A stretch of 64,000 nt of DNA from Alistipes sp. (lineage in GTDB: Bacteria; Bacillota; Clostridia; Oscillospirales; Ruminococcaceae), in the NCBI GenBank assembly GCA_023667265.1, contig JAMPAJ010000002.1:101334-165333 (forward strand). Direction: 5' to 3'. The notes beneath the pieces are model-generated. The model was not told the origin of the DNA. It did no database searches and was given only the letters and a program-made list of their open reading frames with translations. A program made the translations under genes and the position numbers. Shown piece by piece: positions 1 to 26,670 of the stretch (position 1 is the stretch's first letter; every line of letters begins with the position of its first letter).

Positions 1-695
1 GGCGCATTTGCACTCACAGCTTTCATAAAGTCCTCAGCCATATCCCTGGCTTCCTTGCCGTTCGGGTCGGCGGGAGGATCGTCGTATTTCCAGGAATAGC
101 TGTAATGTATATTGCCGCTTATTCCTGCAAATCCGTCGTCGGTCATTACTGCCACGCCGAATTTTATACTGTCGAACATAAAATCGGTATTATTCTGAAA
201 CAGTGAAGAATAGTCTGACAAAGCGACGATACCTGTTATTTTCAGCGGCTTTCCGGCAACGCTGAATGTGTCGCCGACGGACAGATCGTTATTTCTTGCA
301 TAAAGACGATCGAGAGCTATCTCATTTTCCGCTGCCGGCATTTCACCGCTTAAAAGGCACTCTTTGTTCACATCAGTTCTGTTCGCAAAAATTCTCAGTG
401 TACTCTCAAAATCGTCCGTATCTTCTTCAGTGTAATAATTTTCGTATAGCTTTACGCCCTCGTTTTCGATAGAATTGATCGTATCGGCGTCGGCTGCTTC
501 CGCAAGTTCAAAATTTCCGTCCTCAACGTTATACTTCTCAAAGCTGTCATCGTAGGATGTTTTCAGACTTTCGCCTGCAATGAGAAAGCCTGAGACAACG
601 CCTACAAGAGCCGCCATGAAGATAAATATTACCAGGTATTTTCCGGCTTCGTCCTTTATCGCCTTGAAGATTCTTTTATTAAGAGGATTTTTCAT
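1..695 (-). CDS. ABC transporter permease (FtsX/MacB-like), partial; runs off the left edge
   Basis: Hand translation from ATG at 695 (RBS AGGAGGAA upstream): MKNPLNKRIFKAIKDEAGKYLVIFIFMAALVGVVSGFLIAGESL..., with an N-terminal TM segment then a soluble domain. Lies directly downstream of the ABC ATPase. Confidence 0.85.
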   Translation of the reverse strand, partial: MKNPLNKRIFKAIKDEAGKYLVIFIFMAALVGVVSGFLIAGESLKTSYDDSFEKYNVEDGNFELAEAADADTINSIENEGVKLYENYYTEEDTDDFESTLRIFANRTDVNKECLLSGEMPAAENEIALDRLYARNNDLSVGDTFSVAGKPLKITGIVALSDYSSLFQNNTDFMFDSIKFGVAVMTDDGFAGISGNIHYSYSWKYDDPPADPNGKEARDMAEDFMKAVSANA

Positions 696-707
696 AGCTG
701 TTCCTCC

Positions 708-1406
708 TTACCAATCGAGCTCTGCCGCTGAGGTTTTTGTTTCATTAAGATAATTCTTTCTGATGACGCCGTCGCGGAGCTTGATAACTCTGTCCGCCAT
801 ATTTTTTATCGCGTCATTATGCGTTACCATAATGACGGTACTTCCGTACTTCTGATTCAGCTCCTCAATAAGCTTTAGTATCTCCTTGGAGGTATTGTAA
901 TCGAGAGCGCCTGTGGGCTCGTCGCAAAGCAAGATATCAGGATTTTTAACAATAGCGCGTCCGATCGCAGTCCTCTGCTGCTGTCCGCCGGAAAGCTGGT
1001 TCGGAAGCTTATGACGATGTTCATAGAGTCCCAGGACCTTCAAAAGCTCGTCCACATCCAGAGGATCCTTGCTGAGATACGCGCCTATCTCCACATTTTC
1101 CTTGATATTCAGATTTGGAATGAGATTGTACATCTGGAAAATATAGCCAAGATGCTCACGACGATAGGCTGTCAGCGACTTTTCGTTCATATCCTCGGTT
1201 TTTTCTCCGCCGATCTGGATATACCCACTGTCGGCGCTGTCAATTCCGCCGATTATATTAAGCAGCGTGGATTTTCCTGAGCCTGAAGGACCAAGAAGAA
1301 CGCATATCTCCCCTTTTTCGATTTCGGCATCAATGCCTTTCAGCACCTCTACGCGGCTTTCGCCCTCTCCAAAGTGTTTTTTGATGCCCTTGATCTCGAT
1401 AAACAT
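708..1406 (-). CDS. ABC transporter ATP-binding protein (LolD/MacB-type)
   Basis: Walker A GPSGSGKS, signature LSGGQQQR, Walker B LLCDEPT, H-loop VTHN; RBS GAGGAGG. Confidence 0.95.
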
Positions 1407-1480
1407 AAATATTCCTCCTCAGTTAGAATAAGCTAACTTTTATCGCAAAACGTAAACAACCGTTTGCAGTTGCTAACATT

Positions 1481-1509
1481 ACTTTAACATATTTTTATCA
1501 ATTTGTCAA
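1481..1509 (-). promoter_or_regulatory. sigma-A-type promoter for the ABC operon
   Basis: Minus strand TTGACA-17 bp-TAAAGT. An inverted repeat AGTTAG-N6-CTAACT at 1421-1438 may be an operator. Confidence 0.6.
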
Positions 1510-1584
1510 GGCGTGCGGAATGGATTCATTATTCCGGGAAAAATCTCTTCTTTTTAGGTGAATATTCTTATTAATAATATATAA

Positions 1585-1632
1585 AGGCAATACCGTGCAA
1601 AGTCGTCAGATATGCTTTGTGCGGTGTTGCCT
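1585..1632. repeat. REP/MITE-like palindromic element, short copy
   Basis: AGGCAATACCGTGCAAAG ... CTTTGTGCGGTGTTGCCT imperfect inverted ends; same ends as 3987-4160. Confidence 0.7.
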
Positions 1633-1685
1633 AAAGGCAGACTAAAAATGCCGCACAGGAATGTACGGCATTCAGTCACCTTATT

Positions 1686-3962
1686 TTACTGCTTCACATA
1701 GCTGCTGTAAAGTCCGTTCTGCTTTAACAGCTGCTCATGTGTGCCTTCCTCTGCGACCTGTCCCTTATCCATAACATAGATATAGTCGCAGTTTCTGATC
1801 GTGTTTAATCTATGAGCAATAATGATGCAGGTCATTTTGTCCGAGAAGTTTTCGATCATCGCTTTTATGCTATTCTCCGTTATAGTATCAAGATTGCTCG
1901 TCGCCTCGTCCATAATAAGCACATCGGGGTTTCTCAGCAGAGCTCGCGCAATAGCGATCCTCTGCTTCTGACCGCCGGAGAGGTTATTGCCGTTCTCCTC
2001 AATGACAGTTTCATACTTCATGGGAAGCTCCTGTACAAAATCATCCACAAGGCAGAGCTTGCACACACGCTCTATCTCTTCATCTGGAATGTCGGTTCTG
2101 CCCAGCGTCAGATTGTTGTATATCGTATCGGAAAACAAAAATACATTCTGGGAAATATAAGCGATATGATCTCTTACGGAGTCGGATGAATATTGTGAGA
2201 CATCGCTTCCGTCAATGGAAATGATTCCGCTTTCAGGAGAATAGAACGATAAGAGCAGCTTTGCGAGAGTTGTTTTTCCGCATCCGCTTTCACCTACTAT
2301 AGCGGTCTTTTTTCCTTTCGGGATCTTCATATTCACATCCTTCAGCACGAGCTCTCTGTTTCCGTAGCGGAAATTCACATTCTTCAGTTCGATATTTCCG
2401 TAAAGACTGGAAGCAGCCGTTTTCCCGTCAGAGCCTTCAGTTTCGGCATCCAGAATATCATTAAGACGTTCAGCTGCAACAGCGGCTGTCTGGAGCTCGG
2501 GCTGGAGATTTATAAGATTCTGAACAGGGTCGAGGAAGAAACTGATAAGGTAATAGAAGGTTATCAGATCACCGATAGTTATAACGTTTTTTATGCAAAG
2601 ATATGTGCCCGACCAGATAAGCAAAACTATTCCGACAGACGCAACCATGTTTACAAGGGTCTCCTGGATGTTATAAATGATAGAGCCCTTGACGGATGTA
2701 TCGGCAAGCTCGTTATACAGTTCCGATGTTATTTTCTTTGCATTGCTTTCACACTGATAAGCCTTTACAGTTTCTATGCCGTCTATGGATTCTTTAAGAT
2801 ATGATGTGACCTGCGCATCCCTTTCCATCATCTCATGGTTGACATTTTTTATAGGCTTTCTGAATGCGAACATTATCACAGCGTATACTATCATAATGCA
2901 AAGGGTAATTATAAAAAGTGTGCTGTTTATAAAGCAGAGCAGAATACCGCAGGCTACTGCCATTATCGTATCGAACATCAACGTAAGGGTCGCTGTAGAT
3001 ATGGCGTTTCTGATTTTTTCGGTATCGGAGAATCTGGACATGAACTCGCCTGTTTTTCTTGTTCCGTAAAACTCGGCAGGAAGCTCGACAAGATGATCGT
3101 AATATCCAAGAGTTAAAGGAACATCGACTTTTTTCGCAGTGAGAGCAAGGAGATAGCCTCTTAAAACCTGGAGCAGACCTCTGAATATATAAAGCAGGAT
3201 AACTGAAATACACACGGTATTTATATTCTGGAAAACCACCTCAAGCTTGCCGCTTATGCTTGTCAGCATTTTCGTCATAGTTCCGGTTTCTTCCTCGGCA
3301 GCTTCGCCTGTATGGTCGTGATCCTCCTCGCAGTTTTCGTCATCACATTCTGTCTCATCGGTCGTTGACGAGACAGCGGCTCCCATGGCATAATCGAATA
3401 CTACTGAGCCTGCAATATTTATCATGGATACCAATACTGACATGACAAAGACGAAAACGAGCATTTTTTTCTGCATTGTAATATATCTGAAAAACTTCCG
3501 GAATGAGCCCTTCCGCTGATCTCCCTTGCTGAAATCCTTTCCGGGAGCAAGGGTTATGATATTTCCGAGCCATTGCTTTTCAAACTGCTCGGCGGACATC
3601 CTGGTTATCCCTGTTTTAGCCGGGTCGCCGATTTTCAATGTCCCGTTTTCTATCGAGTATACGACAATATAGTGCTCGAACATTTCGTCGTTTATAATTC
3701 TTGCGATAAAGGGAAAGCAGATCTCGCCCTCCGATATGCCGTCGGTAAGCTCTGCGTAAGAACCTTCAAGAGCGTCCGCCTGAAGCCCTATTTTCTCCGC
3801 GCCTGTTACAATACCGTAGATATTCGCGCCATGATTGTCTACTTTTATTAATTCCCGGCATTTCGCAATAGGCAGCTTCAAGCCGAAAAATTCGCTTATC
3901 ATAGAAAGGCAGGCAGCTCCGCAGTCCTTTTCGTCATGCTGTTGTATATGTGGATATTTCAT
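1686..3962 (-). CDS. Peptidase C39-containing ABC transporter (PCAT, double-glycine peptide exporter)
   Basis: Start reassigned to MKYPHIQQHDEKDCGAACL (RBS AGGAG). C39 catalytic motifs DCGAAC and EHYIVV, TM domain, NBD with GESGCGKT, LSGGQ and DEATS. Confidence 0.95.
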   Translation of the reverse strand: MKYPHIQQHDEKDCGAACLSMISEFFGLKLPIAKCRELIKVDNHGANIYGIVTGAEKIGLQADALEGSYAELTDGISEGEICFPFIARIINDEMFEHYIVVYSIENGTLKIGDPAKTGITRMSAEQFEKQWLGNIITLAPGKDFSKGDQRKGSFRKFFRYITMQKKMLVFVFVMSVLVSMINIAGSVVFDYAMGAAVSSTTDETECDDENCEEDHDHTGEAAEEETGTMTKMLTSISGKLEVVFQNINTVCISVILLYIFRGLLQVLRGYLLALTAKKVDVPLTLGYYDHLVELPAEFYGTRKTGEFMSRFSDTEKIRNAISTATLTLMFDTIMAVACGILLCFINSTLFIITLCIMIVYAVIMFAFRKPIKNVNHEMMERDAQVTSYLKESIDGIETVKAYQCESNAKKITSELYNELADTSVKGSIIYNIQETLVNMVASVGIVLLIWSGTYLCIKNVITIGDLITFYYLISFFLDPVQNLINLQPELQTAAVAAERLNDILDAETEGSDGKTAASSLYGNIELKNVNFRYGNRELVLKDVNMKIPKGKKTAIVGESGCGKTTLAKLLLSFYSPESGIISIDGSDVSQYSSDSVRDHIAYISQNVFLFSDTIYNNLTLGRTDIPDEEIERVCKLCLVDDFVQELPMKYETVIEENGNNLSGGQKQRIAIARALLRNPDVLIMDEATSNLDTITENSIKAMIENFSDKMTCIIIAHRLNTIRNCDYIYVMDKGQVAEEGTHEQLLKQNGLYSSYVKQ

Positions 3963-3986
3963 TTTTTTACTCCTGATAAAAATTGT

Positions 3987-4160
3987 AGGCAATACCGCAC
4001 GAAGATTGTGCGGCAGATGCGCAGTCAGATTTTTCGTCAGATTGTACAGAAATGACGCAGGCATACTGACGTATGTCAAGGAATTTCTGTGCAAAATGGC
4101 GGAAAATATGCAAGCAGATGACGTGCAAAATCGTCAAATGTGCTTCGTGCGGTGTTGCCT
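3987..4160. repeat. 174-bp MITE/REP-like element with 18-bp terminal inverted repeats
   Basis: AGGCAATACCGCACGAAG (3987-4004) and CTTCGTGCGGTGTTGCCT (4143-4160), 1 mismatch. Confidence 0.7.
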
Positions 4161-4171
4161 GTAGTATAAAT

Positions 4172-4208
4172 GAAAAACCATATCCCCGGAAAAGAGATAT
4201 GGTTTTTC
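4172..4208 (-). terminator. Hairpin/terminator downstream of the small peptide gene
   Basis: 13-bp perfect stem GAAAAACCATATC / GATATGGTTTTTC. Confidence 0.7.
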
Positions 4209-4215
4209 CGCTTGA

Positions 4216-4386
4216 TCAGCAAATATAAGCGTTGTGACCAGGATATAACATATTGTGAGCCTTAACCTGAGCCTTCAAAATAGCCTTGTTGCACCAAGCA
4301 ACAGTTCTGTGCCAACCGCACTTCCTGCAGTATGCACCCCAGCCGCCGTTAGCCTTAACCTGTGCAGCCTTTGTCATCTTCTTCAT
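4216..4386 (-). CDS. 56-aa double-glycine-leader peptide (bacteriocin-like PCAT substrate), absent from the ORF track
   Basis: MKKMTKAAQVKANGG|WGAYCRKCGWHRTVAWCNKAILKAQVKAHNMLYPGHNAYIC*. RBS GAAAGGGGA; followed by a hairpin and then the PCAT gene. Confidence 0.8.
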   Translation of the reverse strand: MKKMTKAAQVKANGGWGAYCRKCGWHRTVAWCNKAILKAQVKAHNMLYPGHNAYIC

Positions 4387-4541
4387 TGCAATGATCCCCT
4401 TTCATTAAGATTCTGGAATATTAATTCCATACCCCTATTATACAAAAAAATAATCAATTCGTATTTTATACAAAGTTTTTGTTGAAAATTTGTATATATT
4501 TACCCAAAAGAGTCCCGTTTAACGCTATCAGTGAGAAAAAA

Positions 4542-4594
4542 TCAGGGCGTCTCCGTACAAAGTCATCAGACGTGCTTTGTGCGGCGATGCCCTG
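4542..4594. repeat. Degenerate third copy of the REP-like palindrome
   Basis: TCAGGGCGTCTCCGTACAAAG ... CTTTGTGCGGCGATGCCTGA; internal sequence resembles the 1585 copy. Confidence 0.55.
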
Positions 4595-4606
4595 AGGTTT
4601 ATAAAA

Positions 4607-6865
4607 TTATGCTGTTTCTGACGGAAGAGATTTCAGATTGCCTGCGTCATAGCTCTGGATCGCGAGAGCGTCGAGAGCCGTTATGCCGTCGCCGGGATCG
4701 CAGCAGTCCGCATTCCTTTTCTCCTGTGCGCTGAGCTGGTACTTATCTCCGTTGCCGATGTGCTGGAGCACCAGCGTTGCGTCTGAAATATCGACCTCGC
4801 CGTCGCAGTTCGCATCGCCGTAAAGGGTCTTGCTCTCCATTTCCGCGAGTATCTCCAGGTTCTGGTCATAGCTCTTGCTTTCAGCTTCGAGGGCGGGAGC
4901 TCCTTCAAGGCTCGCCTGGTAGCGGCTGTATACCTCGTCAAAATCCGATGTGTCCGTATGCTTGATGACGTACATCTGAACCGCAAGAATGTCGTAGATA
5001 TCCTTTGTCGTGCCGTTTCCGTTGATATCGAAGCCTTCCTCGATGTTATTCCATATTTCAGCCGGAAGCGCGCTGTCAGCGGCGGTTTTTCCGTTGATCA
5101 GCTCCTTCATGTATGTGTTGATCGTGAAGTAGTCGTAGAGGTCGACAGCTCCGTCCATATTGACATCGGGAGCGGCGGTAAGACCAGCATCGACGTTGTC
5201 GCAGTAGGTGAGGAAAAGCTCGTTAAGGTCGTCTATGTTGTATTTCAGCCATGCGTCGTCGTCGACCCTGAGCCCGAGCCGTGCAGCCGCCTGCTCGACC
5301 AGATAATTTATTATTCCGCTGTCAGGACGATAGTAGCTGCTGCCATAGGTCTTGATATAGTATTCCTCAGTGAAGTACTCCGGTCTCATTTCGATATGCT
5401 CAACGATATAGTGCGTCAGGTAGTAGCGGAACGTATGTACATCCCTTGACTGTGTATCTGTGAAGCGATAGCAGTCCTGCAGACCGTTGTCCTCTGTGCG
5501 CTCGACGCAATACTCTGTTATTATGCCGGGACAATGGGACATTGCCGTATCGCAGCGCTTCCATTCCTCGTTGGAAATATATCCCTTGTTTTTATCCTGT
5601 GTCCCAAGATATTCAAAGACATAGAAGACATAGAGATCGCCGATGTCAAGCTGACCGTTTCCGTTAAAGTCCAGGTCGATAGACATATCGAGTTCGTATG
5701 CGGTATTCCATTCGCCTGTCGTGTCCTCGTACATCTCGGCGAATATGTCATAGCCTGCCCGGAGGTAGTACAAGTGATCCTCCAATTCCTTGATGTAGTT
5801 GTACAGAACATTATAGTCCGTGCTGAAATCATCCATGGGGAAATCGGGGTCATAGAAGGTAGGATTAAGCTGCGCGCGTTTCACTCCGCCGTTTATTATC
5901 AGATATCTTTCGAGATGCTCTGAATCCTGGAAGTTGACCACTCCGTCGCCGTTGTAGTCTGCGATAGCCTCGATTCGCTCCCGGTCTGCGTCGTCAAGGT
6001 CTATCTTACCTAATTTCTTGTACTTCTCCGCAAAATAGTTTCTCGCGTTTTCCGCATATTTTTCGGCTAATTCCGGTCTGTCGGAATAGCTCGCATAGAT
6101 ATGCTCTATGGTCTCTTCAACGGCTTCGATCTGGCAGTATCTCTTTTCAAAGGTATAGCAGAAAAGCTTAAAGCCGTCCAGAACGTCGAAAGCTCCGTCG
6201 CCGTTTATATCGAGGTCGAGCTCGCCGCTTTCCATTTTAGCGAATATCGCCTTTTCTCCTGCCCAATATCTCGATTCGTCGATCTTGTATTCTGCGCTGC
6301 CTATTATCGGCGATGCCGAGGCTGCTATCAGTAATGCGGATGTACCTAATGCTGCGATTTTTTTCATATAGATTCTCCCTTCGGTTTCCGTCTGCGCTGT
6401 GCAGACTGTCGTACTTGGCGGAATTTCGTTTGTGTGGAGCTTTGTTTCAAGGGCTGTCTGTGTCTGCCTGGCTTCCGTGTCAGCCGATATGCCCTGGCTG
6501 TGGGGCTGCGTCTGTACCGCCGGGGCAGCCTCCGCGGTCGCTGTGCCGGGAGCAGGAGCGGTCTGTGCAGTCTCCTGCAATGACGTATCGTGATAAGGGC
6601 TCGTTCCAGGTGCAGCAGTCGTGGTCTGAGGGCTCGTTTCAGTCTCGGCAGCCGTGACAGGAATATTCATATCCGGATAATTATTATTAAGTATAACGTC
6701 AATATCCGACGTGCCCCGGACTCCGAGGCATATGAGAAGGACTGCGCAGAGCTGCGCTGCAAGGCATGAGACCCTTTTTATCCCGGAAGCCCTTCTCTGC
6801 TTCCGTTCAAGCAGCTCGTCGCCCCTTTTAAATACTCTTTCTGCAATATCCTCATAACTCTTCAT
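4607..6865 (-). CDS. Anti-sigma-like membrane protein with Pro/Thr linker, several Ca-binding dockerin-like loops and a C-terminal dockerin; possible internal start at 6367
   Basis: MKSYEDIAERVFKRGDELLERKQRR plus a TM segment, P/T-rich linker, second signal peptide MKKIAALGTSALLIAASA with RBS GAAGGGAG, five DxNGDG-type loops, C-terminal YGDANCDGEVDISDATLVLQHI...ADCCDPGDGITALDALAIQ. The longer track start (6967) lies inside the ICE end. Confidence 0.75.
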   Translation of the reverse strand: MKSYEDIAERVFKRGDELLERKQRRASGIKRVSCLAAQLCAVLLICLGVRGTSDIDVILNNNYPDMNIPVTAAETETSPQTTTAAPGTSPYHDTSLQETAQTAPAPGTATAEAAPAVQTQPHSQGISADTEARQTQTALETKLHTNEIPPSTTVCTAQTETEGRIYMKKIAALGTSALLIAASASPIIGSAEYKIDESRYWAGEKAIFAKMESGELDLDINGDGAFDVLDGFKLFCYTFEKRYCQIEAVEETIEHIYASYSDRPELAEKYAENARNYFAEKYKKLGKIDLDDADRERIEAIADYNGDGVVNFQDSEHLERYLIINGGVKRAQLNPTFYDPDFPMDDFSTDYNVLYNYIKELEDHLYYLRAGYDIFAEMYEDTTGEWNTAYELDMSIDLDFNGNGQLDIGDLYVFYVFEYLGTQDKNKGYISNEEWKRCDTAMSHCPGIITEYCVERTEDNGLQDCYRFTDTQSRDVHTFRYYLTHYIVEHIEMRPEYFTEEYYIKTYGSSYYRPDSGIINYLVEQAAARLGLRVDDDAWLKYNIDDLNELFLTYCDNVDAGLTAAPDVNMDGAVDLYDYFTINTYMKELINGKTAADSALPAEIWNNIEEGFDINGNGTTKDIYDILAVQMYVIKHTDTSDFDEVYSRYQASLEGAPALEAESKSYDQNLEILAEMESKTLYGDANCDGEVDISDATLVLQHIGNGDKYQLSAQEKRNADCCDPGDGITALDALAIQSYDAGNLKSLPSETA

Positions 6866-6877
6866 ATATAAACCTCT

Positions 6878-6902
6878 CTTGATATAAGTTCTCATAGCGA
6901 AC
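6878..6902. other. Left attachment junction of the ICE
   Basis: CTTG[AT]ATAAGTTCTCATAGCGAAC; TATAAGTTCTCATAGCGAAC is the inverted counterpart (18/20) of GTTCGCTATGAACACTTATA at the right end. Confidence 0.8.
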
Positions 6903-7059
6903 GAAAAGAACGAACAAAAACCAAAACTTTCAGACAATAGAATATTGTACAAAACAAACAAACTCACGGAATAAAATCGGTGAGTTGTTTGTATTTTCAG
7001 GGACTTTCAAAATGAAGTCCCTTTTCTTATGTCTGAAAAACGAAAACGGAGGTAGAAAA

Positions 7060-7557
7060 ATGGAAAAGAACTTTGTAACCGAACAGAACATCATCGAAAT
7101 TCTTGACAGCTTATATGACAATGAAGAAGCGATATACATACCGCAGACAGTAGCCGCACTGCCAAACATATGTAATGATACAAAATATATTTTTGGAGTG
7201 GCATTTTGTGAATGTCTGAGGAAGATTTCAATGGAAAAACATTTCATACAGCAAGCGGTTGATATGATAAAAAACTATTTGGGAAATATTGAAGCACAAA
7301 CAGTTATGAACTATGTTGAGTGCAGTCTCCAAAGGGCAGTTGAAATAAAAGAGGAGCTTTTAGCTGCTGCTGACGATGAGATACTTCGGAAGTGTTTTAA
7401 TGAAGGCTTTATAAGTTTGATTGAAACAACATCGTTAGAGGACATATACCTTACCAACATTATGTCAAAAGTAGAAGCCTTGCCGTTATGGAAACGCCGT
7501 ATGGTAAAATCAGACATTATAAATATGATTGAGGAAAATTACTCAATCAGCGAATGA
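7060..7557 (+). CDS. Hypothetical protein (first ICE gene)
   Basis: RBS GGAGG before MEKNFVTEQ; helical and acidic; no motif recognised. Confidence 0.65.
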   Translation: MEKNFVTEQNIIEILDSLYDNEEAIYIPQTVAALPNICNDTKYIFGVAFCECLRKISMEKHFIQQAVDMIKNYLGNIEAQTVMNYVECSLQRAVEIKEELLAAADDEILRKCFNEGFISLIETTSLEDIYLTNIMSKVEALPLWKRRMVKSDIINMIEENYSISE

Positions 7558-7847
7558 AAGGAGATATAAGAATGATTGAAAGCAAATCCGGAACAGGTCT
7601 AATTGCACCTGTTGACAACTCGCTTTCTCTCGGAGCAAGAGGGGTACTTGGAGTAATGCTGAATGACCCTTGCTGTGATTATCAGCGGAAAGAAAATATA
7701 TACAGCATATTCTGCTCTGACAGCCGTTCAGCAGTTGACAAAGCACTGTCAGAGCTGTGTGAGAACGGATATATAATTAAGCTGCCGTCAGACGTGTTTG
7801 CAGTCAATAAGACCAAAATACACGATATGCTTATAATTGGGAGGTAA
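7554..7847 (+). CDS. Small winged-helix protein similar to the N-terminus of the next gene
   Basis: DNSLSLGARGVLGVML...ALSELCENGYI parallels DPKLGINGRGILLTML...ALHALEDLGYL. Confidence 0.6.
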   Translation: MKGDIRMIESKSGTGLIAPVDNSLSLGARGVLGVMLNDPCCDYQRKENIYSIFCSDSRSAVDKALSELCENGYIIKLPSDVFAVNKTKIHDMLIIGR

Positions 7848-7850
7848 ATA

Positions 7851-8945
7851 ATGCCAATTTTACAAAAGAAAGTAAACGATGACTTTACAATCGTTCACAA
7901 TGCCTTTATTCGCGACCCTAAACTCGGCATAAACGGGAGAGGAATTCTTCTGACAATGCTGTCGATGAAAGACGGTTGGAATTTCAGTGTAAAAGGCTTA
8001 GCTGCAATTTTGCCCGACGGAGAAAAAAGAGTGTCTACCGCTCTCCACGCTCTTGAAGATTTAGGCTATCTCAAGAGAACTCGAATTACCGACAAGCAGG
8101 GGAAAGTAGTTGAGTGGGAGTATACATTCAGCGACGAGCCAATCTTTTTGGAAAATTCTGACGGAACTTCAAAGAAGCCAAAATCTGACAAAAAAGCAAA
8201 AGAAAAACCACAATTCCGTTTTGGAGATGTGGATAATGCAAATGTGGAAAAGGCAGATGTGAAAAAACGGCATGATAATAAAATACTAAATAATCAAATA
8301 CTATCTAATCAAATACCATTTAATCAATCAGTCAGTCAAGACGAAAAAATTCCGGCAGAGAAAACCGAGACTGGCGGACAGACAGACGGACAAAGCAGGT
8401 CAATGTCTTTTGCGGAGGTTCTTGAAGAAATCGGCTTTGATACGGACAGCATAGATTTTGTTCCTGAAAGCGAAAAAGAGCTGAATGAGCTTGACGAGGA
8501 GGACAGAAGAATAAGCAGATGTACAATTCCCTATTCGCTTAAAGCAGATAAAAAGGCTATGAAAGAAGCCTTGAAATTCTTGTTTGCTTACAGCTGCTAT
8601 GCGCCGACTATGGAAAGCAGCGGCAGACGGCTGCTCGATACCGTCATTTCAGCCCTGGCTGAAATGACAAAAAAGGATATACAGGAATATCAAGGGCAAA
8701 GAGTACGCTACAGTGACGTTATAGACCGTCTTAACGACGTTATACACAGTACGGACGGTTCACTGTTCGACTGGTTCAACAGCTTTGTACAGCAGTGGAA
8801 TAAAATTCTTGCGGAGAATGATATAAAGCACCAAAAAGCGTATATGAAAAGCTGTATATGGAACTGGCTGAACGATTATGCCTTTGAGGAAGATAACGAT
8901 TTGAGAAAACTTGACTACAATTTAAAGAGAAACGGAGTGATTTAG
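7851..8945 (+). CDS. Replication-initiator-like wHTH protein (phage replisome-organiser-type N-terminus, DUF6017-like C-terminus)
   Basis: NDDFTIVHNAFIRDPKLG..KDGWNFSVKGLAAIL..LEDLGYLKRTRI; C-terminal IKHQKAYMKSCIWN. Confidence 0.7.
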   Translation: MPILQKKVNDDFTIVHNAFIRDPKLGINGRGILLTMLSMKDGWNFSVKGLAAILPDGEKRVSTALHALEDLGYLKRTRITDKQGKVVEWEYTFSDEPIFLENSDGTSKKPKSDKKAKEKPQFRFGDVDNANVEKADVKKRHDNKILNNQILSNQIPFNQSVSQDEKIPAEKTETGGQTDGQSRSMSFAEVLEEIGFDTDSIDFVPESEKELNELDEEDRRISRCTIPYSLKADKKAMKEALKFLFAYSCYAPTMESSGRRLLDTVISALAEMTKKDIQEYQGQRVRYSDVIDRLNDVIHSTDGSLFDWFNSFVQQWNKILAENDIKHQKAYMKSCIWNWLNDYAFEEDNDLRKLDYNLKRNGVI

Positions 8946-9435: not shown

Positions 9436-9651
9436 GGTGAGCTGCAATGACTGATAAGAAAAAATTGGGAAAGTTCAGCTCCGCACACAAGAGAACAGAA
9501 AAAGATATTAAGTGGTATATTCGTTATCTTTATGTTGGCAAAGAGCCGAATTTAAAGCGTGTGGGCGGTTCAGGCAGCGGAAAAACAAGATTTTTTATAA
9601 AGCCAAATCTTATGCCGAAGAAGTGAGGTGAGCTGCAATGACTGATAAGAA
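9432..9651 (+). repeat. 29-bp direct repeat (9432-9460 and 9623-9651) duplicating the virD4 translation start
   Basis: GTGAGGTGAGCTGCAATGACTGATAAGAA present twice, exact. Confidence 0.9.
9447..9626 (+). CDS. 59-aa mini-ORF with the VirD4 start and Walker A segment
   Basis: MTDKKKLGKFSSAHKRTEKDIKWYIRYLYVGKEPNLKRVGGSGSGKTRFFIKPNLMPKK*; same RBS as virD4. Confidence 0.55.
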   Translation: MTDKKKLGKFSSAHKRTEKDIKWYIRYLYVGKEPNLKRVGGSGSGKTRFFIKPNLMPKK

Positions 9652-11476
9652 GAAAAAACCTCTTATTTCTCCCGACAGTATTCTCGGAAAAATGCTTGCG
9701 GACTTGAAAAAAGTTTTTAAGAGGAAAGCAAAGTTTGATAAAAAGACGGTTATCGGACTTTTGCCGCTGATTATTATCGCTTGGTTGGGAAATAAAATTT
9801 ACTGCGCTTACAGACTTAACGGTCTGACAATGGAAATGTTCACAGCGGTGAACGATATGTTTTCAAATCCCGTGCCGAGTTTCAATAAATCTGATTTACT
9901 GGCAGGACTTGTAGCGGCGGCAGCTTTCAAGCTGTTTCTGTATATCAAGAAGAAAAACAAGAAAAACTACCGAGATAAGGAAGAATACGGCTCTGCACGT
10001 TGGGGAACGGCAAAGGATATTGAACCGTATGTTGATACGGAAAATCCCCAAAACAATATAATCCTCACTCAGACCGAGAGCCTGACTATGAACGGCAGAG
10101 TGCCAAATCCGAAATATGCCCGAAATAAAAACATACTTATTGTGGGCGGTTCGGGCAGCGGCAAAACAAGATTTTTCGTAAAGCCTAACATTATGCAAAT
10201 GCACAGCAGCTATGTTGTTACCGACCCGAAAGGCACGATAGTTTTGGAGTGCGGAAAAATGCTCCAAAAAGCAGGATACCGCATAAAAGTCATAAATACG
10301 ATAAATATGGACAAGTCAATGCACTACAATCCTTTTGCCTATCTGCACGGTGAGGAAGATATTCTGAACCTTGCAAACACCATTATCACCAACACCAAAG
10401 GCGAGGGAGACAAAAGCGGCGAGGACTTTTGGGTAAAGGCTGAAAGACTGCTGTATGTTGCATTTATCGCCCTTATATATTACGAATTTCCCGAAGAAGA
10501 AAAGAATTTCGGTACGCTGTTATGGCTTATAAACCAGTGTGAAACACGGGAGGACGACGAAACGTTCAAGAACCGTGTTGACCTTACTTTTGAGCTGCTT
10601 GAAAAGAAAAAGGGCGAAGACCATTTCGCGGTAAGGCAGTACAAAAAATACAAACTTGCGGCAGGAAAGACCGCAAAATCTATCCTTATTTCGTGCGGCG
10701 CGAGACTTGCGCCGTTTGACATAGAAAAAGTCAGAAAAATGATGACTTACGACGAAATGGAACTTGATACGCTCGGAGACCCCGACCAAAAGACGGCTCT
10801 GTTCGTGATAGTTTCGGACACGTCGGCAACATTTAACTTTATTATTGCGATGTTGTACACACAGCTTTTCAATCTGCTCTGTACCGTCGCTGATGATAAA
10901 TACGGCGGCAGACTGCCTACGCACGTTCGCTGTCTGCTTGATGAGTTTGCGAACATCGGGCAAATCCCGAATTTTGACAAGCTCATAGCCACTATCAGAA
11001 GCCGTGAAATATCGGCAAGTATCATTTTGCAGTCCAAATCGCAGCTTAAAGCGATTTATAAAGATAACGCCGACACCATAATCGGCAACTGCGACACAGA
11101 ACTGTTTCTCGGCGGAAAGGAAAAGTCAACGCTCAAGGAGTTATCCGAAATTTTAGGTAAACAGACTATTGACCTTTTCACCACATCGGAAACAAGAGGA
11201 CAGTCGCAGTCATCGGGGACTAACTACAACAGAACAGGGAGGGAGCTGATGTCACAGGACGAAATCGCGGTAATGGACGGCGGCAAGTGCATTATGCAAA
11301 TCAGAGGAACGAGAGCTTTTTTCTCCGATAAATTTGACATTACAAAGCACGAACGCTACAAGGAATTATCGGATTTCGACCCTAAAAACACATTTGACAT
11401 AACGGGATATGTCAAAGCAAACGCTAAAATCAAGAAAAACGACGAAATAGAAATCATGTCCCGAATGGTTTTCTGA
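9638..11476 (+). CDS. virD4: Type IV coupling protein VirD4/TraG
   Basis: N-terminal TMs, YGSARWG, Walker A GGSGSGKT, LLDEFANIG, RSREIS..LQSKSQL. Confidence 0.95.
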   Translation: MTDKKKKPLISPDSILGKMLADLKKVFKRKAKFDKKTVIGLLPLIIIAWLGNKIYCAYRLNGLTMEMFTAVNDMFSNPVPSFNKSDLLAGLVAAAAFKLFLYIKKKNKKNYRDKEEYGSARWGTAKDIEPYVDTENPQNNIILTQTESLTMNGRVPNPKYARNKNILIVGGSGSGKTRFFVKPNIMQMHSSYVVTDPKGTIVLECGKMLQKAGYRIKVINTINMDKSMHYNPFAYLHGEEDILNLANTIITNTKGEGDKSGEDFWVKAERLLYVAFIALIYYEFPEEEKNFGTLLWLINQCETREDDETFKNRVDLTFELLEKKKGEDHFAVRQYKKYKLAAGKTAKSILISCGARLAPFDIEKVRKMMTYDEMELDTLGDPDQKTALFVIVSDTSATFNFIIAMLYTQLFNLLCTVADDKYGGRLPTHVRCLLDEFANIGQIPNFDKLIATIRSREISASIILQSKSQLKAIYKDNADTIIGNCDTELFLGGKEKSTLKELSEILGKQTIDLFTTSETRGQSQSSGTNYNRTGRELMSQDEIAVMDGGKCIMQIRGTRAFFSDKFDITKHERYKELSDFDPKNTFDITGYVKANAKIKKNDEIEIMSRMVF

Positions 11477-12760: not shown

Positions 12761-13150
12761 ATGGCTTTATATATGAAAATACCAAAAGATATGAACAATA
12801 TCAAGGACACGGTAATGTTCAAAATGACAAAACGGCAGCTCATTTTCAACGCTATTGGCTTAGCATTGGGTTTTACAGTATTTTGGCTGACATACAAATC
12901 TCTTGGAACAAGCACGGCAGGAATTTTTCTGTTTTGTCTCGGAGGTCCTTTCTTCATAATGGGAATATATGAAAAAAACGGATTTACGCTTGAAAAAATC
13001 CTGCTGAACTTTATACGGTACAAGCTATGTCCGCAGATACGACCGTATAAGACGGAAAATATTTATCGCAAAATCGCGGAAGAAATTGAATATAAGAAAG
13101 AGGTGGAAATGCTTGAAACAGGCAGAAAAAAAGTCAAACTCAAAAACTAA
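12761..13150 (+). CDS. prgI: PrgI family protein (VirB3-like)
   Basis: IPKDMNNIKDTVMFKMTKRQLI, two TMs, YEKNGFTLEK. Confidence 0.85.
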   Translation: MALYMKIPKDMNNIKDTVMFKMTKRQLIFNAIGLALGFTVFWLTYKSLGTSTAGIFLFCLGGPFFIMGIYEKNGFTLEKILLNFIRYKLCPQIRPYKTENIYRKIAEEIEYKKEVEMLETGRKKVKLKN

Positions 13151-15605
13151 GACTAAAACCGTGCCGCTTTCAAAAGCGGAATATGAAACCGTAAAGCAAA
13201 GCGTTTCGGCAAAGGAAAAGCAGCGAAACGCTGTCAAGCTGCCGCAAACTTCACAGCAGTCTATACCATTTGACTATATGACCAAAGACGGCATCGCAGT
13301 GTCGAGCGAACCTGAAAAATTCTCGCTTATGGCTTTTCTGTTCGGCAAAAAGAAGCCTGTGGAAACACGGTACAGCAAAACGGTACAGTTTTACGACGTT
13401 GACTATGAAATAGCGGAGGTTTCAAAACAGCAGAATATTTTCGCTAAATATTGCAGTCTGCTGAACTGCTTTGACAGCAGCGTGAAATTTCAGATTTCAG
13501 TTGTAAACGTTACAAACGACAATGATTTTGAGGACATAATAGAGCTGCCGGAACGTGACGATGATTTCAACGATATTCGCAAGGAATACTGTGATATGCT
13601 CCGTGAGAAACTTGCAAAGGGCAATAACGGCTTTATCCGAGTGAATTATATAACCTTTTCCATAACGGAAAAAAACATCAATAAGGCTCGTCAGCAGCTT
13701 ACGGGAATTGAAAAGGACGTTATTCGTGCGTTTAAATCGTTCGGTGTGGCGGCTGTTCCGCTGAACGGCGAGGAAAGACTGTTTGCAATGTACAAAATGC
13801 TTCATCAGTATTCTGACGACCCGTTTCTGTGCGATTTTGACAGTATGCCGGAAGCCGGATATATGCCAAAGGACTATATTGCTCCGTCCTCGCTCAATTT
13901 TTCCAAAAAGAACGAGTTTAAGTGCGGAAACTTCTGCGGTTCTACATTTTCTATCAATTTGCTTGCTTCGGAAGTATCGGACAGGTTTCTTTCAGACCTT
14001 ATGGATACTGAAAATCCCATAGCGTTTAATATGCACTTCACGGCAGTAGACAACCTTGAAGCCAAAAAATTCGTCAAGCTGAAATTATCAAACGTTGAAA
14101 AAATGAAAGTTGACGAACAGAAAAAGGCGGCGCAGCAAGGCTATGATATGGACATTCTTCCTCCCGACATGAAAACATACATAAACGAGCTTAACATTAT
14201 GCTTGACGATTTGGAGAACAAGAACGAGAGAATGTTTCTTGTAACTATTCTTGTAACCAATTTTGCTAAAAGCGGAAAAATGCTGAGCGTATGCAACGAC
14301 AGGCTGAACCGTATTGTTTTACAGGCTAATTCACAGCTCATTCCTCTTGATTACAGGCAGGATTTGGGACTGGCTTCAATTCTTCCTCTTGCGGAAAACA
14401 GAATTGAAATAGAACGCCGCCTGACTACAAGCTCTGCGGCAATATTTCTCCCGTTTGCCACAAAAGAAATTTTTATAGGCGGTGAAGCCGTTTATTACGG
14501 TCTTAATCAGATTTCCGACAATATGATTATGGCTGACAGAAAACAGCTTGACAATCCCAACGGTATCGTGTTGGGTGTTCCAGGCGGCGGTAAATCGTTT
14601 CAGGTTAAATGCGAAATAGCTCCGGTGTTTCTGTTCACAGACGATGATATTATGATTTGCGACCCCGAAGATGAGTATCATCCGCTTGTCAAGGAATTTC
14701 ACGGTCAGGTTATTGAAATTTCAAGCGACAGCTCGGACTATATCAATCCTATGGATATTGACCGGAACAGCGGTGAGGAAGATATTATCGGTGTAAAATC
14801 GGAATTTATCATCTCTCTTTGCGAGCTTGTAGCAGGAGGGAAATACGGACTTGACCCGCAGGAAATTTCAATTATTGACCGCTGTGTAAGAAATCTGTAC
14901 ATAAATTTTTTCACGGCAATGGAAAAAGCAACCGATGAGGAATTTAATGCAAATATGCCGATTTTAGGCGATTTGCAGGTAGCTCTTTTAGAGACAGGGG
15001 AGGAATACGCAAAACGTGTTGCAAATGCCCTTGAAATTTACGTTACGGGTTCTTTAAATATCTTCAATCACCATACAAACGTTGATTTGAATAACCGTAT
15101 TGTCTGCTATAACATCAAAAAGCTGAAAAATACCCTTAGAAAACTTGGTATGCTGATAGTACAAGACCAAGTATGGAACAAGGTTTCAATGAACAGAGGT
15201 GAAAAATCCACATGGTACTATATGGACGAATTTCACTTGCTGCTCAAAGAAGAACAGACCGCAAAATATTCAGTTGAGATGTGGAAACGTTTCAGAAAAT
15301 GGGGCGGTATTCCTACCGGACTTACGCAGAACGTAAACGATTTTCTTTCTTCAAAAGAAGTTGAGTCCATTTTCGACAATTCGCAGTTTGTCATAATGCT
15401 GAAACAGGCAGTCGGAGACGTTGACGTACTTGCACAGAAATTAAAAATTTCTCCCTCACAGCAGAAATATATTGAAAGCACTGTGCAGAGGGGCAGCGGT
15501 CTTATTTACTATGGCGGAAGTATTCTGCCGTTCAATAATCAGTTCCCGACTGATACAAAGCTGTACAGACTTATGACAACCAAACCGCAGGAAAGTATGA
15601 TTTGA
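13086..15605 (+). CDS. virB4: VirB4-like conjugation ATPase
   Basis: Walker A GVPGGGKS, YMDEFHLLL, RFRKWGGIPTGLTQN. Exact start uncertain. Confidence 0.93.
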   Translation: MNIRKRWKCLKQAEKKSNSKTKTKTVPLSKAEYETVKQSVSAKEKQRNAVKLPQTSQQSIPFDYMTKDGIAVSSEPEKFSLMAFLFGKKKPVETRYSKTVQFYDVDYEIAEVSKQQNIFAKYCSLLNCFDSSVKFQISVVNVTNDNDFEDIIELPERDDDFNDIRKEYCDMLREKLAKGNNGFIRVNYITFSITEKNINKARQQLTGIEKDVIRAFKSFGVAAVPLNGEERLFAMYKMLHQYSDDPFLCDFDSMPEAGYMPKDYIAPSSLNFSKKNEFKCGNFCGSTFSINLLASEVSDRFLSDLMDTENPIAFNMHFTAVDNLEAKKFVKLKLSNVEKMKVDEQKKAAQQGYDMDILPPDMKTYINELNIMLDDLENKNERMFLVTILVTNFAKSGKMLSVCNDRLNRIVLQANSQLIPLDYRQDLGLASILPLAENRIEIERRLTTSSAAIFLPFATKEIFIGGEAVYYGLNQISDNMIMADRKQLDNPNGIVLGVPGGGKSFQVKCEIAPVFLFTDDDIMICDPEDEYHPLVKEFHGQVIEISSDSSDYINPMDIDRNSGEEDIIGVKSEFIISLCELVAGGKYGLDPQEISIIDRCVRNLYINFFTAMEKATDEEFNANMPILGDLQVALLETGEEYAKRVANALEIYVTGSLNIFNHHTNVDLNNRIVCYNIKKLKNTLRKLGMLIVQDQVWNKVSMNRGEKSTWYYMDEFHLLLKEEQTAKYSVEMWKRFRKWGGIPTGLTQNVNDFLSSKEVESIFDNSQFVIMLKQAVGDVDVLAQKLKISPSQQKYIESTVQRGSGLIYYGGSILPFNNQFPTDTKLYRLMTTKPQESMI

Positions 15606-25632: not shown

Positions 25633-26670
25633 ATGGACGTATTAAGTTTGTTTGACGGTATTTCCTGCGGAATGGTCGCATTGGAACGTTCGGGAATACC
25701 CGTTGAAAAGTATTCAGCGTATGAAATTGATAAATACGCTTTGACAGTTTCAAAGAAAAACTATCACAAAATAGAACAGTACGGAGACGTATTCGAGGGC
25801 AGTTTCAAAAAACATAAAGGCTGTGATTTGCTTATCGGCGGCTCTCCATGCACTTTTTGGAGTGTTGCTAAAAGAGACAGAGAAACAACTCCAGACGGTG
25901 AGGGGTTCAAAATGTTTATGCAGTATGTCAGAGCCTTAGAAGAAAGCCGTCCGAAATATTTTCTTTATGAGAATAACAACAGCATACATAAGGATATAAA
26001 GACGGAAATATCTAAATTCTTAGGTGTTGAGCCGATTATGATTAACTCCGCTTTGGTGTCCGCACAGCATAGAAAAAGATGTTACTGGACAAATATTCCG
26101 AATGTAACACAGCCGGAGGACAAAGGCATTTTGCTTAAAGATATTATCATCAGCGGCATTCCTTGGCAGGACAAGTCTTATGCCTATACAACAAGATGTC
26201 AGGCTGCAACGTTTAAAGATACACTTGAACGTCACAGACATACAATGATTGCCGAGCCTGTCATACTTAACGATATAAACGGAAAAGCACGGACAATAAA
26301 AGCGCAGTATAAAAATACGGGTATTCCAAACGCCGTTCGTACAGACGGTTTTGGCGCAACTATGGTCGCAGTACCTGTCAAAATCGGACAAATAGGAAAG
26401 TATCAACAGGACAGAGTGTATTCGGTTTACGGAAAGTCGGTTTGCCTAAAAGCCAACGGCGGAAACGGTGCAAAAACAGGTCTGTATAAAATTGACTTGC
26501 CCGACGGAGATTACATAATCCGCAAGCTGTACCCTATCGAAGCGGAACGTCTGCAAACGCTCCCCGACAATTACACGGAGGGAGTTTCAAACACTCAGAG
26601 ATACAAGGGTATCGGAAACGGTTGGACTGTTGACGTTATCGCTCACATTCTTGGATTTATTCCGAAATAA
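25633..26670 (+). CDS. Orphan DNA (cytosine-5)-methyltransferase
   Basis: Motif I LSLFDGISCG, motif IV GGSPC, motif VI YENN, C-terminal ERLQTLPDNY..IGNGW. Confidence 0.92.
   Translation: MDVLSLFDGISCGMVALERSGIPVEKYSAYEIDKYALTVSKKNYHKIEQYGDVFEGSFKKHKGCDLLIGGSPCTFWSVAKRDRETTPDGEGFKMFMQYVRALEESRPKYFLYENNNSIHKDIKTEISKFLGVEPIMINSALVSAQHRKRCYWTNIPNVTQPEDKGILLKDIIISGIPWQDKSYAYTTRCQAATFKDTLERHRHTMIAEPVILNDINGKARTIKAQYKNTGIPNAVRTDGFGATMVAVPVKIGQIGKYQQDRVYSVYGKSVCLKANGGNGAKTGLYKIDLPDGDYIIRKLYPIEAERLQTLPDNYTEGVSNTQRYKGIGNGWTVDVIAHILGFIPK

Follow-up and report, generated by a model that had tools for sequence, protein, structure and literature searches.

The window analysed here is the whole of a 64,000-nucleotide stretch of contig JAMPAJ010000002.1 (Alistipes sp., assembly GCA_023667265.1, positions 101,334 to 165,333 of the forward strand). 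Its subject is a pair of minus-strand genes, one a 56-codon open reading frame (ORF) at 4216..4386 and the other, downstream of it, coding for a peptidase-containing ATP-binding cassette (ABC) transporter (PCAT). The small gene encodes a precursor with a short leader ending in two glycines and a 41-amino acid (aa) core carrying a zinc finger-like set of cysteines and histidines. The explanation that best accounts for the whole, given about even weight, is an exported, unmodified double-glycine peptide that is folded by a metal and is most likely a bacteriocin. Its parts differ in strength: i) that the ORF is a real gene is practically certain; ii) that the peptide is a substrate of the PCAT is highly probable; iii) a metal-clamped fold of the core is somewhat favoured; and iv) its identity as a bacteriocin stands at an even chance.

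The precursor gene

The ORF translates as MKKMTKAAQVKANGG-WGAYCRKCGWHRTVAWCNKAILKAQVKAHNMLYPGHNAYIC, exactly the leader and 41-aa core read in the initial annotation of this DNA. The core (WGAYC...AYIC) opens with WGAYCRKCGW and contains 4 Cys, 3 His and 3 Trp, spaced in the precursor as C20-x2-C23 ... H44-x6-H51; these counts and this spacing had also been read correctly. It has a computed average mass of 4763.6 Da, a pI of 9.56 and a net charge of +6. The cationic core mentioned in the initial annotation is thus a property of the window peptide and not a trait of its family, in which the net charge of the core ranges from 0 to +7.

A 56-codon ORF is by itself unremarkable, 113 ORFs of at least 30 aa being present within the first 12 kb of the window, and the case for a gene therefore rests on conservation. 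Comparison with a 71%-identical homologue at locus L008, a metagenome-assembled genome (MAG) of an uncultured Ruminococcus sp., gives a proportion of synonymous differences (pS) of 0.67 and of nonsynonymous differences (pN) of 0.15, and a dN/dS of 0.10, with synonymous sites near saturation; against the homologue at locus L001, pN is 0.25 and the synonymous sites are saturated. The minus-strand frame is under strong purifying selection, and because the substitution pattern fits that frame, two overlapping plus-strand ORFs (4255-4485 and 4286-4408) were rejected. The window peptide was already a called gene (P0001) in the protein collection searched. The repeat AQVKA, singled out earlier, does occur twice in the precursor, both copies being coded by CAGGTTAAGGCT; this 11-12 nt repeat is absent from every homologue and was dropped as a meaningful feature. 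A tblastn search for a second copy of the gene in the window produced a sole weak match (26434..26490, plus strand, LKANGGNG), which lies inside the C-5 DNA methylase gene and is attributed to chance.

The transporter gene and the cassette

The PCAT gene starts with an ATG at 3962, 254 nt 3' of the peptide gene, and is preceded by an AGGAG site. Judged by its sequence, the product is a genuine peptidase-containing ABC transporter, as had been noted initially: it scores 612 bits against NCBIfam TIGR01193 (cut-off 524) and matches Pfam Peptidase_C39 (E 1.4e-31), ABC_membrane and ABC_tran. The context of the C39 catalytic Cys, QQHDEKDCGAAC (DCGAAC), is present, and so is the later EHY...GDP. Orthologues of this PCAT adjoin the peptide homologues in L008 (83% identity) and L001 (53% identity).

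Nucleotide homology between the window and L008 is limited to 1735..3984, which covers the PCAT gene, and 4169..4450, which covers the peptide gene with its promoter and terminator. The flanking genes differ: in L008 they are a gene that looks like a tryptophanyl-tRNA synthetase, an aminotransferase-like gene and an XRE-like regulator, and in the window a dockerin protein gene and the genes of an ABC ATPase and permease. Since homology stops at these borders and the flanks differ, peptide and PCAT form a compact two-gene cassette.

The peptide family

A first protein search found two relatives, with 71% and 61% identity, both encoded upstream of orthologous PCATs (L008/L002-L007 and L001). The family was then defined by an exhaustive profile search of 1.84 billion representative proteins and two profile searches of a 5.8-billion-protein collection, which together recovered about 27 related clusters. 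All are unnamed or labelled "hypothetical protein", including one NCBI record from a Lachnospiraceae MAG. The family is spread over gut Ruminococcus and Lachnospiraceae; a pattern scan of metagenome contigs confirmed no relatives. The initial annotation had made its reading depend on conservation and expression of the ORF. Conservation is borne out by the dN/dS and the breadth of the family; as to expression, a transcript of the 71%-identical homologue was found and no RNA run searched holds the window allele.

The leader is the best-conserved segment, even across otherwise unrelated cores. Its consensus is MK(K/Q)M(T/S)x4-5(M/L/V)xxNGG, or MKKM(T/S)..Q..ANGG in the 15-residue form, and in an alignment of 18 sequences M1, K2, G14, G15, C20 and C23 are invariant and K3, M4 and N13 nearly so. 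With 15 residues and a terminal GG, the window leader falls within the definition of a double-glycine leader (about 14-30 residues, ending in GG or GA/GS). Counted back from the cleavage site, Met occupies -12 and -15, a hydrophobic residue -6, and Gln -7 in 14 of the 18 aligned sequences; Glu is found at -8 in some homologues only.

In the core, conservation narrows to four residues. A core-only alignment of 12 sequences has C5, C8, H29 and H36 as its sole invariant positions, equivalent to C20, C23, H44 and H51 of the precursor. Of the 27 clusters, 26 combine C-x2-C with an H-x4..7-H that lies 12-35 residues further on, P0050, a borderline match, being the exception; P0009 has H-x1..2-H in place of H-x4..7-H. 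The classical spacing C-x2-C-x12-H-x4-H is exact in P0013 and P0017, and in P0045 the second His is replaced by Cys (C-x2-C ... H-x3-C, a C2HC set). Many distant members match the query through the leader only (27% query coverage), and their cores are otherwise dissimilar; the Cys/His pattern that they share is therefore not an artefact of the search. Of the zinc finger-like Cys/His core proposed at the outset, the C-x2-C and two of the histidines thus remain, whereas C32 and H26 are variable among homologues. C56 is restricted to a Ruminococcus-type subfamily, in which C20, C23 and C56 are all conserved. Several members of the family carry only two Cys, both in the CxxC.

The core also varies between alleles. 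Sequencing runs X22 and X24 contain a second allele whose flanks are identical to L008. The 13 substitutions (L008 8051..8124) all lie between C20 and H44 and amount to 7 nonsynonymous and 2 synonymous codon changes; 5 of the amino acid changes match the residues of the window peptide. This pattern indicates mosaic or diversifying evolution of the core between fixed ligands. Runs X31-X36 hold the homologous allele completely and bear an organism label and not a metagenome label; some of its carriers may be cultured.

Predicted fold and proposed metal site

AlphaFold2 predicts a beta-beta-alpha fold for the window core, consistent with the zinc finger-like character first assigned to it. The full precursor, modelled with a 3-sequence alignment, has a mean pLDDT of 83.9; its helices span 6-12 (in the leader) and 31-47, and its strands 16-19 and 26-29. 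Five models of the 41-aa core, made with a 12-sequence alignment, reach a mean pLDDT of 90.5-93.2 and place strands at 2-4 and 11-13 ahead of a helix at 16-32, with a short C-terminal bridge in which residues 39-40 pair with the sheet. In the predicted layout the hairpin turn carries the CxxC, the helix has H44 in its final turn, and H51 comes just beyond it. This resembles a zinc finger, but the 17-residue helix is about two turns longer than in classical fingers. The four weak matches of the core model in a Foldseek search are all to zinc domains (TRIM28 B-box1, the MCM7 zinc finger, Miz-1 finger 7 and a UBR box).

C20, C23, H44 and H51 are the ligand candidates throughout the family; in the Ruminococcus subfamily the C-terminal Cys joins them. 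The four would form a tetrahedral site for a metal, most likely Zn(II), that clamps the core; C56 might be an extra, fifth or alternative ligand where it is present. A metal clamp in place of disulfides would suit release into the strongly reducing gut or rumen.

Disulfide bonding is judged the main structural rival. The peptide would still be an exported double-glycine bacteriocin, stapled by disulfides (C20 or C23 with C56, or a CxxC ring) and not by a metal, and its histidines would be kept to bind a target or to sense pH. Among class II bacteriocins, disulfide-stapled examples that have a C-terminal Cys are known, such as the pediocin-like peptides; C20, C23 and C56 are conserved together in the Ruminococcus subfamily, and the pairing of residues 39-40 with the sheet in the core model would bring C56 near the hairpin. 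However, most of the family lacks C56, and where the CxxC pair are the sole cysteines a disulfide could not staple the fold. Both His match the two Cys in invariance, and one member swaps the second His for Cys, an exchange typical of metal ligands. Furthermore, the peptides come from strict anaerobes that live under reducing conditions, and none of the loci examined was found to carry a gene for a thiol-disulfide oxidoreductase. Disulfides in place of a metal are on this evidence improbable, although a chance worth keeping in view.

Expression

The ribosome-binding site and downstream hairpin of the initial annotation are both confirmed: AAAGGGG stands about 9 nt upstream of the ATG, and a 16-bp hairpin with a T-run follows the stop codon directly, folding at -24.2 kcal/mol (z = -6.2 against shuffles). 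The ribosome-binding site is conserved in L008 and L020. An extended -10 element, also conserved in L008, and a second -10-like element lie further upstream (Table 1); the assignment of the former is inferential, since no -35/-10 pair came up in a strict two-hexamer scan for sigma-70 promoters. The inverted repeat TGGAAT-N4-ATTCCA, which could be an operator or a 5' stem-loop, is placed 3' of the -10 element and 5' of the ribosome-binding site, at about the expected start of transcription. L008 has a counterpart (TGGAAT..GTTCCA), and L010 and L012 have different small hairpins at the same place.

The terminator palindrome CATATCTC..GAGATATG occurs once in the window and is conserved as sequence in L001, L002-L008, L012 and L020 (stems at L001 562-582, L008 8183-8205, L012 866-887 and L020 about 690-712). 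Because the stem is kept without compensatory changes despite saturated synonymous sites next door, it may have a sequence-specific role beyond termination, for example as a protein-binding site or in recombination of the cassette. The hairpin probably acts as a partial terminator that sets the ratio of peptide to transporter. In the gut metatranscriptome run X23, the L008 homologue (from 7829 to 8340) has a depth of about 7 in contigs that start 5' of the gene, compared with 2-3 over the PCAT gene and 0 over the upstream gene, contig depth being only a rough guide; this profile agrees with a promoter of the gene's own and with partial termination.

Between the terminator and the ribosome-binding site of the PCAT gene the window has a spacer that is absent from L008 and L020. 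It holds repeated TTTTGCAC motifs, one TGTACAAT element and a CCGCAC..GTGCGG hairpin, and could be a separate promoter or a regulatory insert for the PCAT gene.

Genomic context of the family

The homologues beside PCATs that the initial annotation had proposed to look for are found. A PCAT adjoins the peptide gene in 8 of the 11 members with informative context, the remaining contigs being too short to tell. The PCAT gene lies directly 3' or after one or two genes in the window and at P0002 (L002-L008), P0003 (L001), P0013 (L009), P0010 (L015/L016), P0014 (L017/L018), P0009 (L020/L021) and P0018 (L022).

Additional genes accompany the cassette at several loci. In L001 the gene between peptide and PCAT encodes a protein of 187 aa that has hydrophobic segments and a tail both charged and coiled-coil-like, and a protein with seven transmembrane (TM) segments is encoded after the PCAT. 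In L015 a 6-TM protein precedes the PCAT, and a large protein resembling substrate-binding proteins (SBP), an ABC ATPase and a further 6-TM protein follow it. Upstream in L017 and L022 is a response regulator that matches LytTR weakly, and SBP_bac_8 proteins of 712-747 aa surround the PCAT there. The genes of these large SBP_bac_8/SBP_bac_1 proteins lie at L015 11199-13337, L017 8315-10555 and 13087-15264, and L022 8485-13086; in these Lachnospiraceae-type loci each protein has an N-terminal extension of about 340 aa that carries no annotation. They may serve as accessory proteins or as receptors.

L020 encodes a second peptide (91..300, plus strand; P0045/P0046) upstream of the P0009 peptide-PCAT cassette. 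It has the leader MKQMNTQGMMKANGG followed by KTYTCPFCKKKF...AHLKMC, a C2HC pattern, and its own terminator. Since its leader is of the same kind, some loci may be two-peptide systems.

Proposed mechanism and role

The proposed sequence of events is as follows. An unmodified 56-aa precursor would be made by the ribosome, its amount exceeding that of the transporter since the hairpin after the stop codon would let the peptide transcript exceed the transporter transcript. The C39 domain of the downstream PCAT would bind the helical 15-residue leader and cut after G15, and the PCAT would export the 41-aa core, which would fold outside as a beta-hairpin plus alpha-helix mini-domain around its metal. 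The exported core would serve in interbacterial antagonism as a class II-type bacteriocin. Computation supports the gene, its family, the PCAT linkage, the conserved leader, the invariant C2H2 set, the predicted fold and transcription of a homologue; cleavage after G15, export, metal binding and antimicrobial activity are proposed for the window peptide.

Antagonism is judged the likeliest role because the window core is cationic and amphipathic, membrane and ABC proteins are neighbours in several loci, a LytTR-type regulator is encoded in two, the core is diversified and the cassette is located beside mobile DNA. The initial annotation had left the function between bacteriocin, signal and metal-binding peptide; its interpretation is otherwise supported.

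Signalling is judged the main functional rival: the peptide would be an exported cell-to-cell pheromone like ComC or BlpC, which are processed by PCATs of the ComA/BlpA type. A minimal cassette that lacks an immunity gene would suit a signal, as would the LytTR-like response regulator upstream in L017 and L022 and core alleles that vary in the manner of pherotypes. On the other hand, no histidine kinase is encoded beside the peptide in any locus examined, no regulator is present in the window cassette, and the multi-TM and ABC neighbours in L001 and L015 resemble immunity genes. Known double-glycine pheromones are, moreover, short and unstructured, not folded domains of 40-58 aa. A signalling role is consequently unlikely, and rather more so than disulfide bonding.

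PCATs often export peptides that are made by the ribosome and modified after translation (RiPPs), and a conserved C-terminal Cys is the substrate of some tailoring reactions. The peptide might be a RiPP precursor, with enzymes from other parts of the genome acting on its Cys and His residues. This is given little credence: the core is predicted to be a well-folded domain, and the 11 informative loci are all without a modification gene next to that of the peptide, be it radical-SAM, LanM/LanB/LanC, YcaO, glycosyltransferase or decarboxylase. Scans of the window neighbourhood, L001, L008, L015, L017, L020 and L022 found no Pfam domains of RiPP enzymes, and the ORF listing with NCBIfam and Pfam scans put no modification enzyme near the peptide gene in the window, in keeping with the initial annotation.

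An intracellular zinc-finger protein, such as a nucleic acid-binding regulator of the transporter gene with an incidental GG and no export, would agree with the basic, C2H2-like core and with the existence of small prokaryotic zinc-finger proteins, but it is very improbable given that conservation is highest in the 15 N-terminal residues up to the GG, also where the cores are otherwise unrelated, that linkage to C39-bearing transporters recurs in two bacterial families and that L020 has two such peptides in tandem.

Several observations weigh against the explanation of an exported, metal-folded bacteriocin. Three members of the family, P0004 (followed by tRNA genes), P0005 and P0008, are orphans that have no adjacent PCAT on the available contigs, and in L008 and L020 the minimal two-gene cassette comes without a conserved immunity gene. 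The leader is atypical: canonical leaders have hydrophobic residues at -4, -7, -12 and -15 and an acidic residue near -8, whereas here Gln stands at -7 and Ala at -4 in place of bulky hydrophobic residues. Models of double-glycine leaders are unmatched, and the nearest approaches come from distant members only (Bacteriocin_IIc at E 0.23, TIGR03949 at E 0.16). As regards the metal site, the window spacing C-x2-C-x20-H-x6-H falls outside the classical C-x2-4-C-x12-H-x3-5-H; no zinc-finger HMM (hidden Markov model) reaches its threshold, the best being zf-H2C2_5 (E 0.04-0.11) and zf-H2C2_2 (E 0.036); and Foldseek searches of both AlphaFold2 models against the PDB gave nothing significant (E above 3). 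Finally, the RNA evidence consists of assembled contigs of a 71%-identical homologue and not of the window organism.

Searches for a known family had a similar outcome. Pfam and NCBIfam scans of the window peptide and 15 relatives returned only sub-threshold matches, Pfam zinc-finger families appearing only at E 0.01 or worse. The window peptide has no match at E up to 1 among the curated leader and bacteriocin models (Bacteriocin_IIc PF10439 and the NCBIfam class II models), and a sequence-profile search of the PDB found nothing significant (E 0.3 or worse). Membership of the Rdx/SelW CxxC family was rejected at 18.3 bits against a cut-off of 22.6, the match covering the CxxC stretch only. 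The searchable literature holds no description under the motif strings or under secreted zinc-finger bacteriocins, and the family is not present in the main text or supplements of the Hungate1000 bacteriocin survey. As the curated models of the class II peptides fail for it, and so do the classical spacing, the HMMs and the structural searches for zinc fingers, the peptide is filed under neither class II bacteriocins nor C2H2 fingers; it is a new variant among PCAT cargoes, with a zinc finger-like scaffold.

Surroundings of the cassette

Downstream of the PCAT gene, on the same strand, are genes for a MacB/FtsE-like ABC ATPase and the N-terminal part of an FtsX-like permease that runs off the window (Table 1). 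The ATPase is a possible immunity or efflux component, and its tie to the peptide is uncertain; it is not conserved beside the cassette in L008 or L020. A lactococcin-972-type exporter was considered for it and rejected, the score of 198 bits being below the cut-off of 255. On the other side of the cassette, a minus-strand ORF of 786 aa (4607..6967) encodes a protein that carries a dockerin at its C terminus (Pfam E 8.6e-13) and has a region rich in Thr, Ala and Pro; the GC content of the ORF is 50%, compared with 41-44% around it. An internal signal peptide-like start, MKKIAALGTSALL, suggests that the listed GTG start of this ORF is too far upstream.

From about 7000 to 43000 a long run of plus-strand genes forms a conjugative-element block, and the cassette lies just outside one end of it. 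A megablast search of window positions 1-8000 against plasmids gave no match, and an Rfam scan of window positions 3500-5000 found nothing.

Table 1. Features of the peptide-PCAT cassette and of its surroundings, in window coordinates
Feature	Position	Strand	Basis or remark
FtsX-like ABC permease, N-terminal part, runs off window	1..695	-	Inferred from N-terminal TM segment and pairing with the ATPase
ABC ATPase, MacB/FtsE-like	708..1406	-	Family matches
PCAT, 758 aa (C39 peptidase, transmembrane and ATPase domains)	1686..3962	-	NCBIfam and Pfam matches
Spacer, about 185 nt, between terminator and PCAT ribosome-binding site	3985..4168	-	Window-specific
Intrinsic-terminator-like hairpin	4172..4208	-	Terminator scan
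Precursor peptide gene, 56 codons and stop	4216..4386	-	ORF list, homologues, dN/dS, AlphaFold2 models
Core-coding part, 41 aa	4219..4341	-	
Leader-coding part, 15 residues, MKKMTKAAQVKANGG	4342..4386	-	
Ribosome-binding site	4395..4401	-	Conserved in two loci
Inverted repeat	4414..4429	-	5' of the ribosome-binding site
Extended -10 promoter element, TGTATAAT	4437..4444	-	Read from sequence
Second -10-like element, TGTATAAA	4465..4472	-	Read from sequence
Type IV secretion system (T4SS) coupling protein	9638-11476	+	Conjugative-element block
TraG-type P-loop ATPase	13086-15605	+	Conjugative-element block
C-5 DNA methylase	25633-26670	+	Conjugative-element block
3206-aa ORF	30451-40071	+	Conjugative-element block
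PBECR4 nuclease-domain protein	43320-44729	-	

Significance

A double-glycine peptide with a PCAT is a well-known export module, and the known cargoes of PCATs are unstructured or helical, disulfide-stapled, or enzymatically cross-linked RiPPs. A cargo family with a zinc-finger ligand set and a beta-beta-alpha fold would add a new structural class to the bacteriocin-like peptides, and would point to a way in which strict anaerobes keep secreted peptides stable under conditions that do not favour disulfides. These may be the first secreted zinc finger-type peptides of bacteria, a PCAT-exported, unmodified family clamped by a C2H2/C2HC site as an adaptation to the anoxic, reducing gut, a proposal that is put forward tentatively and at a little less than even confidence. 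If it is true, disulfides and RiPP chemistry would be joined by metal coordination as a third general means of stabilising small peptides secreted by bacteria. None of the databases searched has a name for the family, which also escaped the Pfam and NCBIfam bacteriocin models scanned. That the alleles of the core are mosaic hints at competition or recognition among strains. With a 41-residue core accessible by synthesis, the question is easily testable.

Comparison with known systems

The closest likeness is to the class II double-glycine bacteriocins, such as class IId peptides like lactococcin A and bactofencin A and the disulfide-containing, pediocin-like peptides of class IIa. Shared features include i) a small ribosomal precursor with a short GG leader; ii) a structural gene directly upstream of a C39-ABC transporter, with no modification enzymes; iii) a terminator hairpin between the peptide and transporter genes; and iv) in the window member, a cationic core. 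The window peptide differs in that the Bacteriocin_IIc and TIGR leader models are unmatched and that no conserved immunity gene or accessory protein accompanies it. The core lacks the YGNGV(X)C box of the pediocin-like peptides and has C-x2-C, not the C-x4-C disulfide. Known class II bacteriocins are amphipathic and helical or disulfide-stapled, whereas the window core is predicted to be beta-beta-alpha with an invariant C2H2 set.

With the classical C2H2 fingers (Pfam zf-C2H2 and the prokaryotic Ros/MucR) the peptide shares the CxxC at the hairpin turn, two His at or after the end of the helix and the predicted beta-beta-alpha order, and P0013 and P0017 share the exact finger spacing as well. 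It departs from them in its x20 and x6 spacings, its 17-residue helix and its want of a significant HMM or Foldseek match. Known C2H2 fingers bind nucleic acids or proteins inside the cell; the window peptide has an export leader and would act outside.

The pheromones ComC/CSP and BlpC, exported by ComAB and BlpAB, likewise have a GG leader, export by a PCAT and an allelic diversity concentrated in the mature part. The window peptide differs from them in having no cognate histidine kinase, a mature part about twice as long, a predicted fold and the Cys/His set. Glycocins such as sublancin and glycocin F also combine a GG leader and export by a PCAT (SunT-type) with a Cys-containing, structured helical core. 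Their structure is held by two nested C-x6-C disulfides, and the window locus is without the glycosyltransferase and thiol-disulfide oxidoreductase genes of the glycocins; in place of the nested disulfides its peptide has a CxxC and putative His ligands.

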